From NCBI GenBank assembly GCA_963752975.1, contig CAVWAG010000003.1:206793-270792 (forward strand): a DNA stretch of 64,000 nucleotides, written 5' to 3'. Source of the DNA: an uncultured Chloroflexia bacterium. Its GTDB lineage: Bacteria; Chloroflexota; Dehalococcoidia; GIF9; UBA5629. Both the position numbers and the translations under genes were made by a program. Positions 46,831 to 50,079 of the stretch are shown one piece after another. The notes beneath the pieces were generated by a model. It was given only the letters and a program-made list of their open reading frames with translations, did not search any database and was not told the origin of the DNA. How positions within the stretch are numbered: position 1 is the stretch's first letter; the number at the start of each line of letters is the position of its first letter.

Positions 46831-46854
46831 GGACGAGTTTAAAAACCCGTCCCT
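46831..46854. repeat. GTAG-family REP palindrome interrupted by the IS110 insertion
   Basis: GGACGAGTTT-AA-AAACCCGTCC-CT; removing the element restores ...CCCGTCC-CT-ACG, homologous to the REP at 38892-38917. Confidence 0.8.
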
Positions 46855-46884
46855 TGTATTGTTAATATCAGTTATTATATTCCA

Positions 46885-47030
46885 TATGATGATGGATGCG
46901 GTAGACCGTCCCGTCCCTTGGTCTTATAGGCCGTTACGTAGCATGGGTCGCCGCATCCGATCTCCAAGTAACCCGAACAGTTGTCTGGGATAAGAAACCC
47001 GCATCATGCAAGGAAGGGAGAAAAGGAGAA
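46885..47030 (+). ncRNA. IS110 bridge RNA (target-binding loop plus donor-binding loop); ends approximate
   Basis: Stem GGATGCGG/CCGCATCC encloses CCCGTCCCT (46910-46918, equals left target + core) and ACGTAG (46936-46941, reverse complement of core + right target). A second loop holds ACAGTTG (46977-46983, equals the element right end) and ATGCAAG (47006-47012, pairs with CTTGTAT with one G-T wobble). Confidence 0.85.
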
Positions 47031-47035
47031 AAACA

Positions 47036-47995
47036 ATGGAAAGTGAAAAGATTTATGTTGGGATCGACATTTCAAAGGAACGGTTGGATGTATCTTTATA
47101 TCCGGAAGATAGCTGCCAGACATTTTCTTATGATGAAAAAGGCGTAACCGCTATTACAGAATACTTGAGCAAAGTTCGCCCTGCCATCGTTGTGCTGGAA
47201 GCCACTGGCGGTTATGAAGCTTTGATCGCGGCTTCACTAAGCACGGCTGGAATAGCAGTGGCATTGACAAATCCACGTCAAATACGTGATTTTGCCAAGG
47301 CCACAGGGAGATTAGCTAAAACTGATAGTATTGATGCCAGGGTGATAGCTCATTTTGCGGCAGCAATTAAACCGTCACCAAAGCCCGTGTCGGATGATCA
47401 GTCTCAAGAATTCAAAGACATGCTAATGCGCCGGCGGCAAATCATTGAAATGATAACGGCGGAGAAAAACCGGCTTGGCAAAGCCAGTGGCTCGGTTAAA
47501 AAACGCATAGAAGCTCACATACATTGGCTACAGAAAGAGCTGGACAATATTAGTCAACGGCTATCAGAGACGGTAAAGAACAGCCCTATATGGAGAGAAA
47601 AAGATGATATGCTGCAAAGCATCCCAGGTGTAGGTCCTGTACTATCTTTAACGCTCCTGGCGGATCTTCCTGAGTTGGGCAAATTGAACAGGCGCCAGAT
47701 TTCCGCACTCGTAGGAGTCGCACCATTCAACCGAGATAGCGGACTGTGGAGAGGTAAACGCACCGTCTGGGGTGGCCGGTCGAAAGTGCGCGCGGCTTTA
47801 TATATGGGTACTCTGGTTGCAACACGGTATAATCCGGTGATCCGAGCATTCTACTTGCGGCTGTGCGCCGCAGGTAAGGCTAAAAAGGTGGCTATAACTG
47901 CCTGCATGCGTAAACTACTCACAATAATCAACGCTATGATCAGAACAAGAACCGCTTGGACAGTCCCGGTGCCGGTAATTAATAATATTGGTTAA
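47036..47995 (+). CDS. IS110-family DEDD recombinase (transposase), 319 aa
   Basis: YVGIDISK (D), VLEATGGY (E), NP, KTDSIDA (D,D), SIPGVG, GVAP..RDSG (catalytic Ser region), ACMRKLL. ATG 47036 follows an AGGAGA RBS; the upstream ATG at 47006 lies inside the donor guide. Confidence 0.95.
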
Positions 47996-48009
47996 AGACA
48001 GTTGCTACG

Positions 48010-50079
48010 TTACTCGTGCGAGGCAGCGGCCTTGTGCTGGGCGACTATCTTTTGCGCAATAGGCGCCGGCGCCGCCTGATAGTGGCTGAATCCCACGGTG
48101 AAGGTTCCCCGGCCCTGCGTCATGGAGCGCAGGTCGATGGCATACCTGAGTATCTCGGCCAGGGGGGCCTGCGCCTGGATGACATTCATGCCCTGGCTGG
48201 GGTTCATGCCGCTCACGTGGGAGCGCTTGGTATTGAGATCGCCGATGATATCCCCGGTAAACGAGTCGGGCACGGTGACCGTGATATTCATGATAGGCTC
48301 GAGTAATACCGGCGACGCGTCGCTCATGCCCTTTTTAAAGGCCTGGGCCGAGGCGATTTTGAAGGCCATCTCCGAGGAGTCGACCGGATGGAAGCTGCCG
48401 TCTATGAGAGTGACCTTCATATCAACGGCAGGGAACCCGGCTATGACGCCCTCGACACGTGCTTCTTTGATTCCTTTCTCGACGGCCGGTATGAAGTTCC
48501 TGGGTACCGAGCCGCCCACTACCTTTGACTCGAATTCGAAACCACCACTCGGTGGCAACGGTTCAATCTTAATTACAACGTGCCCGTACTGGCCGTGCCC
48601 GCCGGTCTGTTTCTTATGCTTGTATTCAGCTTCGACAGGGACGGTGATAGTCTCCTTGAATGGTACCCTGGGCACATCCAGCAGCACTTCCACGGCGAAC
48701 TTGCGCTGCAGCCTGCTGGCGGCGATATCGAGGTGGGTGTCGCCCATACCGCCCAGCGTGAGCTCACCGGTATCGACTTCACGCTGCGCCTTTAAGCTGG
48801 GGTCCTCCTCGCAGATCCTGGCCAGGCCGGAACTCATCTTATCGAGGTCCGCCTTGGATTTGGGGTGGACAGCCTTATTTAAGATAGGCGCCAGGTACTG
48901 AATGGAAGCGAGTTTAAGAGGATGCTCTTTAACGCCGAGTGTGTCACCGGACGCTGTACTGGCCAGCTTCACCACCAAACCGATGTCCCCCGTTATGACC
49001 TGGTTGACGGTTTCCTGGCTCTTGCCGCGCGGCACCGAGACCTGCCCGATCCTCTCGACGGCCGCCTTATTCACATTCCAAACCTGTGAATTGCTGGATA
49101 AAACACCTGAATAGACGCGGAAAAAGCTGACCTTGCCCACATGCGGGTCGGTGGTCGTTTTGAATACCAGTGCGGCCAGCGGGGACTCTGCTGCCGGCTT
49201 AACTTCTTCTTCCGCGCCGCTGGCATTGATTGCCTTGAAAGTGCCGGCGGTAACCGGTGAAGGCAGGTATTCCACAATGGCGTCAAGCAGCATCGCCGCT
49301 CCATTGTTGGTGAGGCCTGACCCGGCCAGCACGGGGATTATGCCGCCCTGCAGGGTAGAAGCCTTTAAACATTTATATATCTCTTCTGTGGTTATCTCCC
49401 CGCCATCCAGGTACCTGGTCATTATCTCATCATCGATTTCCACTACCGCCTCGATAAGTTTGTCGCGGGCGCTGTCGATATCCGCCGCCATTGAAGCTGG
49501 CACCTCGATCTCCTTGACCGGCGCGCCGGCATAGGCTTTTTTGGCGATGATGTCGACGACGCCTTTGAATTGCTTCTGCGAGCCAATAGGGATCTGGATA
49601 GGCAGGCAGCGTGTATTCAACTTGGATTGTATCTGTTCGAGGGTGGAGGCGAAGTTGGCATTTTCGCGGTCCATCTTGCTCATGAAAATCAGGCGTGGTA
49701 TCTTTGCCTCCGAGGCATAGCCCCAGACCTGCTCCGTGCCGACCTCGACCCCCGAGGCGGCGCACACCACGATGACCGCGGCTTCGCTCACGCGCAGGGC
49801 CGATTTGACCTCGCCCACGAAGTCCGGGTAGCCCGGTGTGTCGATGAGGTTTATCTTGGTGTTCTTCCAGTTCAGGGGCAGTATGGTAAGGTTTATGCTT
49901 ATCTTATGCTTTATCTCATCGGGGTCGTAATCTGAGGTGGTGGTGCCATCGGCTACGTTGCCCATGCGGCTGATGGCGCCGGCATCGAAGAGCATGGCTT
50001 CAGCCAGGGAGGTTTTGCCGGAGCCGGAATGTGAGAGCAGGGCGACGTTGCGGATTTTATCAGGTCCAGTTTGCTGCAT
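48010..50079 (-). CDS. Elongation factor G paralog (EF-G2 type)
   Basis: IRNVALLSHSGSGKTSL, DTPGYPDF, EEDPSL, GMGDTHL, KKQTGGHGQYG, VDSSEMAF, LRSMTQGRG; RGITI replaced by HKISI; not in an str operon. Confidence 0.9.
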   Translation of the reverse strand: MQQTGPDKIRNVALLSHSGSGKTSLAEAMLFDAGAISRMGNVADGTTTSDYDPDEIKHKISINLTILPLNWKNTKINLIDTPGYPDFVGEVKSALRVSEAAVIVVCAASGVEVGTEQVWGYASEAKIPRLIFMSKMDRENANFASTLEQIQSKLNTRCLPIQIPIGSQKQFKGVVDIIAKKAYAGAPVKEIEVPASMAADIDSARDKLIEAVVEIDDEIMTRYLDGGEITTEEIYKCLKASTLQGGIIPVLAGSGLTNNGAAMLLDAIVEYLPSPVTAGTFKAINASGAEEEVKPAAESPLAALVFKTTTDPHVGKVSFFRVYSGVLSSNSQVWNVNKAAVERIGQVSVPRGKSQETVNQVITGDIGLVVKLASTASGDTLGVKEHPLKLASIQYLAPILNKAVHPKSKADLDKMSSGLARICEEDPSLKAQREVDTGELTLGGMGDTHLDIAASRLQRKFAVEVLLDVPRVPFKETITVPVEAEYKHKKQTGGHGQYGHVVIKIEPLPPSGGFEFESKVVGGSVPRNFIPAVEKGIKEARVEGVIAGFPAVDMKVTLIDGSFHPVDSSEMAFKIASAQAFKKGMSDASPVLLEPIMNITVTVPDSFTGDIIGDLNTKRSHVSGMNPSQGMNVIQAQAPLAEILRYAIDLRSMTQGRGTFTVGFSHYQAAPAPIAQKIVAQHKAAASHE

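Follow-up and report, generated by a model that had tools for sequence, protein, structure and literature searches.

Organization of the locus

The 64-kb window (the whole stretch of DNA that was analysed) carries an IS110-family element of 1152 bp at positions 46855-48006, with its features on the plus strand. It comprises a non-coding left end of 181 nt (46855-47035), which on direct reading and alignment with relatives encodes a predicted bridge RNA, a gene for a recombinase of 319 aa plus stop (47036-47995), and a right non-coding end of 11 nt including the core. The neighbouring genes encode what we take, from their translations, to be electron-transfer flavoprotein subunits, an EF-G-like GTPase and ribosomal proteins.

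On the left, the flanking DNA ends in the left target (LT) CCCGTCC (46846-46852) and a CT core (46853-46854), and the element opens with TGTAT (46855-46859), the right donor (RD), which is conserved at the left ends of relatives. On the right, the non-coding end closes with the left donor (LD) ACAGTTG (47998-48004) and a second CT core (48005-48006). The right target (RT) ACGTT follows (48007-48011) and overlaps the minus-strand stop codon (48010-48012) of a convergent 689-aa ORF. LT was read directly, as were both cores, which an earlier note on this DNA had placed at the same positions. No terminal inverted repeat linking the ends was found among the 25 longest of 56 inverted-repeat pairs.

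The assembly contains three copies of the element, two of them identical and one (C13) frameshifted. The ends are exactly alike in all three, and so is LT; RT reads ACATT in the two copies other than the one in the window, a single mismatch to the right target guide. The identical pair lies on different contigs, with 100% identity over all 1152 bp and unlike flanks. An uninterrupted target, CCCGTCCCTACGTT, occurs on contig C6 of the same genome. In a second genome of the same genus (G011), the orthologous site (locus L088) reads CCCGTCCCTACGTTACTCGTGC and the element is absent, in a locus 92% identical to the element-bearing one. At the empty sites LT is joined to CT-ACGTT, with a single CT. 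The boundaries of the element are thus fixed by a same-genus locus that is uninterrupted as CCCGTCC-CT-ACGTT, the very target that had been reconstructed in the earlier note. The reconstruction of the donor junction proposed there, ACAGTTG-CT-TGTAT, also stands.

The identity of the two copies suggests recent transposition, and the insertion sequence is intact and probably recently mobile. Its earlier description as “potentially active” is a reasonable one, given the two 100% identical copies and the empty site of the sister genome.

Insertion into a REP-like repeat

The natural target is a REP-like repeat hairpin, read directly as GGACGAG / TTTAAAAA / CCCGTCC at 46831-46852, whose 3' arm is LT. 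The element lies in this 3' arm, 3 nt beyond the stop codon of the convergent gene. At the empty orthologous site of G011 the hairpin is perfect (GGACGGG/CCCGTCC). Members of this repeat family, with a GGGCGGG-TTTAAAAA-CCCGCCC-CTAC end, are found at many sites in the genome and also in the window at 38892-38917.

The recombinase

The listed ORF is 329 aa long (47006-47995), and a start at ATG 47036 gives 319 aa. This start lies 7 nt behind a ribosome-binding site, AAGGAG (47023-47028), and a purine-rich box ahead of the start codon is conserved among relatives. Residue 1 of the shorter protein aligns to residue 1 of the solved IS621 and ISCro4 proteins. Both Pfam domains were detected: DEDD_Tnp_IS110, which spans residues 18-158 of the 329-aa ORF (E 2.4e-25; 89.6 bits, the cut-off being 29), and the C-terminal Tnp domain Transposase_20 (PF02371; E 7.9e-18). 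The protein aligns over its full length with IS621 (E 1.3e-40) and with ISCro4 (E 5.2e-43). ISCro4 has reportedly been used in human cells.

Residues D11, E55, D97, D100, S235 and G236 align with D11, E60, D102, D105, S241 and G242 of IS621, which form its active site (PMC11208158, available text). This mapping was read off the alignment, with the chain numbering corrected by an offset of 2 residues. The claim of an intact 319-aa DEDD recombinase is therefore upheld by both domains and by the presence of all IS621 catalytic residues.

A covarying two-loop structure in the left end

For comparison of the left end, 80 related loci were retrieved and admitted if they showed a recognisable ORF motif preceded by 270 nt of sequence, which left 63 distinct upstream sequences including that of the window. 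One locus (L005) was excluded from the alignment for a 26-nt internal duplication. RNAalifold was applied to the alignment, and the target loop's inner stem was added by eye before pairs were counted. Two pairs that RNAalifold placed between the donor guides, at columns 102-139 and 103-138, were dropped as products of invariant columns.

The structured part spans 46894-47018 and contains two internal loops. The target-binding loop module (46894-46958) has an outer stem (46894-46907/46946-46958) and an inner stem-loop (46920-46932); its helices 1-3 comprise 16 pairs, of which 13 have changed on both sides, and 89-94% of cells are paired. The donor-binding loop module (46972-47018) has an outer stem of CCC 46972-46974 and GGG 47016-47018 and an inner stem of GGG 46987-46989 and CCC 46998-47000. 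Its helices 4-5 comprise 7 pairs, 5 with changes on both sides, and 96-100% of cells are paired. Over 42 distinct sequences, compensatory changes on both sides were found in 18 of the 23 pairs. Paired cells amount to 94.1%, as opposed to 81.2% in shuffles and 33-51% when partners are slid, and 0 of 500 shuffles reached any of the five structure measures, relatedness among the 42 sequences being retained in these controls. A 5' hairpin (46871-46893) comes from the single-sequence fold, and its inclusion in the RNA depends on the transcription start. The single-sequence fold of the whole left end is not significant relative to shuffles (z = -1.52).

A scan of 46600-48200 against Rfam 15, at E values up to 10, gave 18 matches, none at the gathering score; Rfam 15 may hold no bridge-RNA family. 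These sub-threshold hits are chance matches, the best of them falling on the hairpin of an upstream terminator.

Guides matching the target and donor

The four left-end segments that had been matched to both target and donor are real (46910-46918, 46936-46941, 46977-46983 and 47006-47012), and they occupy the loops of the covarying structure. In the target loop, the left target guide (LTG) CCCGTCCCT (46910-46918) equals LT plus core at 9/9 positions, and the right target guide (RTG) ACGTAG (46936-46941) is the reverse complement of CT-ACGT (6/6). RTG is followed by the target-loop handshake guide CA (46942-46943), which complements donor positions 6-7 (TG) and not target positions 6-7 (CC), by a rule taken from the available text of PMC11208158. 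An inverted repeat of 46933-46943 with 48003-48013 (91%) spans RTG and these handshake bases. In the donor loop, the left donor guide (LDG) ACAGTTGT (46977-46984) matches the left donor at 7/7 positions and continues with a U that faces the G of the bottom strand at the first core base. The right donor guide (RDG) ATGCAAG (47006-47012) pairs with CT-TGTAT, including one G.T pair, and the donor-loop handshake base G (47013) complements target position 7 (C).

Matches of this kind are weak evidence on their own. In the 64-kb window CCCGTCCCT occurs twice where 0.50 occurrences are expected, and 8 of 100 shuffles also reached two. The guide matches are put beyond chance by the ends of the three copies, the uninterrupted site on C6 and the empty locus of G011. 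Of the additional matches to AACAGTTG in the window (5 against 1.45 expected), two, at 56568 and 57815, lie 1247 nt apart inside ordinary ORFs and were set aside as chance.

Comparison across the family ties each guide to its own flank. The core and the first 5 nt of RT are the reverse complement of the element's own RTG at 7/7 positions in 28 of 35 own pairings, compared with 15 of 1190 cross pairings; this count leaves out 8 of the 43 distinct loops, which lack a right end or have one that is unclear (L006, L007, L017, L030, L037, L040, L041 and L072). For the left target, at least 7/9 positions agree with LTG in 22 of 43 elements, compared with 80 of 1806 cross pairings, under a rule that sets the left end at the rightmost TGTAT separated from the loop by 40 nt or more and that misplaces at least L011, L025, L041 and L078, scored as misses. 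Ten elements have a variant LDG, and seven carry exactly the same variant at the right end; an eighth was recognized by eye. In 33 of 43 elements, 3 of which show covariation here, the handshake base of the donor loop forms a pair with position 7 of the target. The earlier reading of the left end as a bispecific bridge RNA is thus supported by a covarying two-loop architecture in 42 relatives, with loops that covary with flanks and ends.

A sister element with a different guide and different sites

Another genome of the same genus (G009) contains an element that is 80% identical at the DNA level and has the LTG AACGCCC-CT. Its left flanks read AACGCCCCT in four of five cases and TACGCCCCT in one, and all five end in (A/T)ACGCCCCT. 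This element interrupts the G009 assembly at 14 places.

These data bear on the idea that the recombinase locates its site through contacts between protein and DNA, with the left-end matches as by-products such as captured target remnants. The window by itself would be compatible with this, as a 9-mer present twice in 64 kb was matched by 8 of 100 shuffles. Yet guides and flanks covary over dozens of elements with different targets, guide and target have both changed in the G009 sister, and the guides are located in the loops of a covarying structure. The published IS621 experiments, in the text available, also favour guidance by RNA. We consider recognition by protein contacts extremely unlikely, and RNA guidance remains our preferred reading of the left end.

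Promoters, RNA and the circle junction

Joining of the element ends creates a -35/-10 promoter in 21 of 35 relatives, with a TTGACA-like box at -21 and TATNNT at +3 to +8 in a fixed register across the joined ends. This is a common family feature and not a strict criterion of membership. The window element does not have that junction promoter, and shows TATTGG (1/6) at the -35 place. A weaker junction candidate, TTGCTT-17-TATTAT, scores 8/12, and a further candidate promoter-like site, TGGACA-18-AATAAT (47957-47986; 10/12), lies within the gene, at its 3' end, and reads towards the right end. With 3 promoter-like sites against 2.3 +/- 1.7 in shuffles, the region holds no excess.

In IS200/IS605, folded single-stranded DNA pairs with DNA. 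The conserved left-end structure could likewise work as folded single-stranded DNA, given that its pairing is strand-specific and includes G.T/G.U (one pair, for instance, shows 18 UG), which fits RNA and single-stranded DNA alike. However, relatives regain a promoter ahead of the structure, and the IS621 RNA has been sequenced, bound and seen in a cryo-EM complex (PMC11208158 and PMC11208160, available text), which makes a role as DNA highly improbable here.

The 14-mer of the circle junction is missing from the assembly at up to one mismatch. Matching sequencing runs comprise four DNA runs from two studies, with small shares, and no RNA runs. Contigs from these runs are 150-213 nt long and identical to parts of the gene; they cover neither element end and contain no joints.

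A bridge-RNA element by descent that is now immobile in this genome has to be weighed, for instance one whose RNA fell silent with the loss of the junction promoter; the three copies would in that case be old or be assembly duplicates. The absent family promoter, the frameshifted copy, the lack of a circle junction in the assembly and the presence of only three copies, as against 14 assembly breaks caused by the G009 sister element, all point that way. Such immobility would nevertheless have to accommodate two copies on separate contigs that are identical over 1152 bp in differing flanks, catalytic residues and four guides that are all intact, other promoter-like sites, and an empty site in a sister locus of 92% identity. 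We judge it unlikely.

Proposed mechanism

Taken together, the analysis indicates that 46855-48006 is very likely an autonomous element of the IS110 group, of the IS621 type, with its own predicted bridge RNA and a mechanism modelled on that of IS621. By analogy with IS621, the element would be excised as a circle, and transcription of its left end would yield a bridge RNA about 135-180 nt long. Four recombinase subunits, acting as a tetramer, would use this RNA to pair the target with one loop and the circle junction with the other. Cleavage after the CT cores would then be made by S235, strand exchange would be aided by the handshake bases CA (46942-46943) and G (47013), and the Holliday junction would finally be resolved.

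More tentatively, the window element could be active without the family junction promoter, its bridge RNA starting from TTGCTT-17-TATTAT or from the site at 47957-47986, and could show, together with the G009 sister, natural reprogramming of guides within one genus. This combined proposal is doubtful. If true, the two elements would aim at opposite arms of one REP-like repeat (CCCGTCC-CT-AC and AACGCCC-CT-AC), and a start at TTGCTT-17-TATTAT would give a bridge RNA of ~135 nt without the 5' stem-loop.

Comparison with known systems

The earlier note proposed a probable Dehalococcoidia host. The closest relatives of the element are found in metagenome-assembled genomes (MAGs) of Chloroflexota or Dehalococcoidia, which for a mobile element says little about the host. 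Three metagenome proteins (P0001-P0003) are 92%, 88% and 85% identical to the recombinase, and the best match in a species-representative genome (73%) is from a Chloroflexota MAG (L005). The public relatives, named only “transposase”, share the left-end architecture wherever a left end is available, but have other target guides, both left and right, and targets that differ accordingly. At the DNA level, a search of 5,426 E. coli genomes gave only a 154-nt stretch of 71% identity, present in 119 genomes. Two of these matching E. coli regions were examined and proved to be broken IS110-family genes, not IS621.

The IS1111 group has the same family of recombinase, but there the bridge/seek RNA lies in the right end, which greatly exceeds the left in length (PMC11208160, available text). 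With a left end of 181 nt and a right end of 11 nt, the window element does not belong to that group. Other REP-targeting IS110 elements, such as ISPpu9 and ISPpu10 of Pseudomonas putida, also insert in repetitive extragenic palindromes, according to published abstracts and to the text available from the same source. There, Durrant et al. predicted bridge RNAs in 85.7% of the IS110-group elements of ISfinder and analysed 5,511 target pairs. The bridge-RNA system was already described in 2024, and the present element is an ordinary new ortholog; it or near relatives may already be listed in the supplementary ortholog tables of that study. It opens no new mechanism or question, and is a candidate for ortholog screens.

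The best-scoring solved relative is ISCro4 (PDB 9T56; full length, E 5.2e-43), which is about as distant from the window element as is IS621 of Escherichia coli (PDB 8WT6 and others). Only some one third of the recombinase is identical to that of IS621 (102 identical of 304 aligned residues, counted on the match line), and it has 319 aa, the IS621 domains being given for residues 1-326 in the available text of PMC11208158. Both have the same two protein domains and a DEDD plus Ser-Gly active site, and both elements have the bridge RNA, here a predicted one, in the left end, with the target loop preceding the donor loop, and a REP-like repeat as target. As that text also describes for IS621, LTG consists of 7 nt plus core and LDG of 8 nt, the two share the donor position at which a G.T pair occurs, and handshake bases and a CT core are present. 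The earlier note had given an IS621 donor differing at two positions, and this was correct: ACAGTAT-CT-TGTAT is printed as a donor oligo in the text available from PMC13396178. The two donors are near-identical.

The window element differs from IS621 in its right non-coding end of only 11 nt and in the absence of a junction promoter in the usual register. Its RTG complements the core plus 4-5 nt, compared with 4 nt in all in IS621, and its RDG is able to pair without interruption, two U being flipped out in IS621 (PMC11208158, available text). It adds one more well-delimited bridge-recombinase ortholog, in which the recombinase and its guides, the donor, the natural target, the empty site and a sister retargeted in nature can be read together. 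Its environmental lineage is remote from the enterobacterial elements that have been studied to date. These features make it a convenient test case for the rules derived from IS621 on RTG length, wobble tolerance and handshake bases.

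An IS110-family element and its recombinase

The element is an 1152-bp IS110-family insertion sequence with a recombinase gene and, in its left end, a predicted bridge RNA. Direct reading of the window sequence places CCCGTCC at 46846-52, the CT core at 46853-54 and TGTAT at 46855-59 on the left side, and ACAGTTG at 47998-48004, CT at 48005-06 and ACGTT at 48007-11 on the right side, exactly where the earlier note had put these sites. The single long open reading frame (ORF) between the element ends (47006-47995) encodes 329 aa counted from the first ATG. An ATG at 47036, downstream of AAGGAG (47023-28), yields a 319-aa recombinase, and in alignments its initial methionine falls on residue 1 of the solved proteins of IS621, the E. 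coli bridge recombinase element, and of its relative ISCro4. Pfam identified DEDD_Tnp_IS110 (2.4e-25) and Transposase_20 (7.9e-18) domains in the ORF. A full-length HMMER alignment to the IS621 protein (E 1.3e-40) maps D11, E55, D97 and D100 of the recombinase onto IS621 D11, E60, D102 and D105, and S235-G236 onto S241-G242; these DEDD and Ser-Gly residues form the composite active site of IS621 (PMC11208158). Counted by hand on the match line, 102 letters are identical across 304 aligned residues, or about one third. The recombinase family is very large (at least 8000 proteins match, every candidate scored), and public metagenome collections contain unnamed proteins with 92%, 88% and 85% identity to the recombinase.

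Copies, boundaries and mobility

Three copies of the element are present in the source assembly (18 contigs, 2.19 Mb, 75% complete), on contigs C3 (the window), C9 and C13. The C3 and C9 copies are both 1152 bp long and do not differ at all. The C13 copy (C13:55492-56644, locus L002/L099) has one added T after the equivalent of window 47664, which ends the recombinase at 212 aa and reflects either a pseudogene or an assembly error. The left flank is CCCGTCC-CT in all three copies, and the right flank is CT-ACGTT in the window copy and CT-ACATT in the other two. Elsewhere in the same genome (C6:210872), CCCGTCCCTACGTT occurs without interruption. The orthologous intergenic region of G011, a same-genus genome (flank 92% identical), reads GGACGGGTTTTTAAACCCGTCCCTACGTTACTCGTGC, with a single CT and no element. 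Because the element-free sites have a single CT, the element spans 46855-48006, counting one core. Its distribution is patchy (1 of 30 related genomes in a DNA-level search), and it has probably been active recently. The circle junction of right and left ends was not found in the assembly. A search of sequencing runs matched no RNA run and four DNA runs from two studies, the latter contributing contigs of just 150-213 nt, each identical to part of the recombinase gene.

Structure of the predicted bridge RNA

We compared the left end with those of 80 related loci, 50-73% identical in protein and taken from species-representative genomes assigned by record title to Chloroflexota, Nitrospirota, Nitrospinota, Gemmatimonadota and others. 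The relatives' left ends fall into one architecture, which starts with a variable 5' part and then an outer stem. On the 5' side of the target loop, AG-NN-CG is followed by a variable 9-10 nt and a short inner stem-loop; on the 3' side, CCG and six variable nucleotides lead to an invariant AGC, after which the outer stem closes and a linker follows. The donor loop has the form CCCGA-ACAGTTG-YN-GGG ... CCCG-CATC-(0-4 nt)-GCAAG-G ... GGG. The element and its relatives share the layout that Durrant et al. (PMC11208160) describe for the IS621 bridge RNA, in which a 5' stem-loop precedes two others that contain internal loops, one variable and then one conserved.

Pairing was counted over 42 distinct sequences (alignment A1) on a hand-written structure of 23 pairs in five helices, one of which, the inner stem, was drawn in by eye. 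The paired cells amount to 94.1%, versus 81.2% in shuffles, and 18 pairs have changes on both sides, versus 11.2 in shuffles. None of 500 shuffles attained any of the five structure measures, and when partners were slid only 33-51% of cells paired. No relevant RNA family was identified in an Rfam scan of the element region. In the nearest species-representative relative (L005:1320-1475, from a Chloroflexota MAG, 73% protein identity), the 5' half of the donor loop is tandemly duplicated, with AATCCCGAACAGTTGCC present twice at a spacing of 26 nt.

Guides match target and donor

Under the published rule, left guides correspond to the top strand and right guides to its reverse complement, core included. 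The left target of the window element matches its guide (46910-18) at 9 of 9 positions. Across the elements compared, the left target agrees with the element's own 5'-side loop strand at at least 7 of 9 positions in 22 of 43 elements, versus 80 of 1806 cross pairings (means 6.44 and 4.46, respectively), with four left ends visibly misplaced by the placement rule scored as misses. For the right target, the core and 5 nt of right flank were compared with the reverse complement of the own 3'-side loop strand. All seven positions match in 28 of 35 distinct elements, six in another five and fewer in two, versus 7/7 in 15 of 1190 cross pairings; the window element matches at 6 of 7 positions in the window and at 5 of 7 in its other two copies.

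In the Nitrospira-type loci L009, L012, L013, L014, L018 and L040 the left target guide ends in CG and the target core is CT; therefore, the core-pairing guide position is not always complementary in the clade. On a Nitrospinales MAG chromosome (OZ253496.1, loci L050-L074), a related element with 53% identity at the protein level is present in 14 or more copies; its left end is longer, and its left target guide TTTACCCCT matches the flanks of most copies.

Donor loop and element ends are both conserved across the relatives. A variant of ACAGTTG occurs in the loop of 10 elements, and seven of these carry precisely their own variant ahead of the right-hand CT; an eighth also has a matching right end, judged by eye. 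The right donor guide, ATGCAAG at 47006-12, is complementary to CT-TGTAT apart from a single G.T pair, and a non-canonical G.T pair occupies the same donor position in the IS621 structure (PMC11208158). Following the handshake-base rule of that structural paper, CA at 46942-43 complements TG at donor positions 6-7 but not CC at target positions 6-7, and G47013 complements C at target position 7 but not G at donor position 7. Independently, a repeat finder paired 46933-43 with the junction of right end and target at 48003-13 (inverted repeat I12, 91% complementarity). Of 43 elements, 33 have a donor-loop handshake base that pairs with target position 7, three of them covarying cases; among cross pairings the share is 62%.

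A REP-like repeat as landing site and apparent natural retargeting

The insertion point lies 3 nt past the stop codon of a convergent 689-aa ORF, on the 3' arm of a hairpin of the REP-like repeat family GTAGGGGCG...GGGCGGG-TTTAAAAA-CCCGCCC-CTAC. The repeat, REP-like or MITE-like, has inverted ends (GTAGGGGCG...CGCCCCTAC) around the internal GGGCGGG-TTTAAAAA-CCCGCCC hairpin, and occupies about 15-20 places in the genome, on contigs C3, C4, C5, C6, C9, C17 and C18; a further copy in the window is at 38892-38917. Most copies carry CCCGCCC, with which the left target guide would still pair via one G.U pair. The genes flanking the element are convergent: 44883-46718 (+), which by eye we take to encode the beta (267 aa) and alpha (332 aa) subunits of an electron-transfer flavoprotein, and 48010-50079 (-), by eye presumably an EF-G-like GTPase of 689 aa. 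At 46744-46777 there is a strong terminator hairpin.

G009, a genome of the same genus, contains a sister element with about 80% DNA identity, in so many copies that it leaves 14 broken contig ends in the G009 assembly (loci L096, L098, L100-L110). Its left target guide is AACGCCC-CT, and the five readable left flanks end in AACGCCCCT (four) or TACGCCCCT (one); the insertion site is the opposite arm of the same REP-like repeat. All eight right flanks open with AC after the CT core, as the guide predicts, and are variable further out, so right-target recognition looks loose beyond the core and two nucleotides. Thus, two close relatives differ alike in guide and target, a contrast that is, on comparative grounds, the best proxy for guide dependence obtainable without experiment. 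The repeat is the natural landing site of the element and, by its other arm, of the sister element.

Candidate promoters of the predicted bridge RNA

In 21 of 35 relatives the joined ends rebuild a promoter in a fixed register, as published for IS621 (PMC11208160): a TTGACA-like box lies 21 nt ahead of the end, and TATNNT occupies +3 to +8. The window element has TATTGG at the -35 place of this junction promoter (1 of 6 matches), and the usual junction promoter is absent. Three candidates were identified: TTGCTT-17-TATTAT across the junction (8/12), whose TATTAT position is common to the closest relative, L005; TGGACA-18-AATAAT at 47957-47986 on the + strand (10/12), within the 3' end of the recombinase gene; and TTAATA-17-TATGAT at 46862-90 (9/12), from which the start would fall inside the outer stem. 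Three promoter-like sites in the region represent no excess over shuffles (2.3 +/- 1.7). The candidate at 47957-47986 faces out of the element, and in the integrated copy transcription from it would run antisense to the convergent 689-aa ORF at its 3' end.

Comparison with IS621

At the level of sequence, the element has every IS110-group feature examined, save the usual junction promoter. The earlier note had read it as an IS110 bridge-RNA system with a donor differing from that of IS621 at two positions; the first reading is correct and well supported by the comparison, and the second is borne out by the IS621 donor printed in PMC13396178. Protein identity to IS621 is about one third, and the element differs in having an 11-nt right end. 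The right target guide of IS621 is 4 nt in all, whereas that of the element complements the core and 4-5 nt, and its right donor guide, unlike that of IS621, can pair without flipped bases. By these comparisons the difference from IS621 is of degree only. In the survey by Durrant et al. (PMC11208160), a bridge RNA was predicted for 85.7% of the IS110-group elements in ISfinder, and 5,511 target pairs were examined. Given that survey, the size of the family and its close unnamed relatives, the element is therefore an unnamed addition to a known kind, new yet unsurprising.
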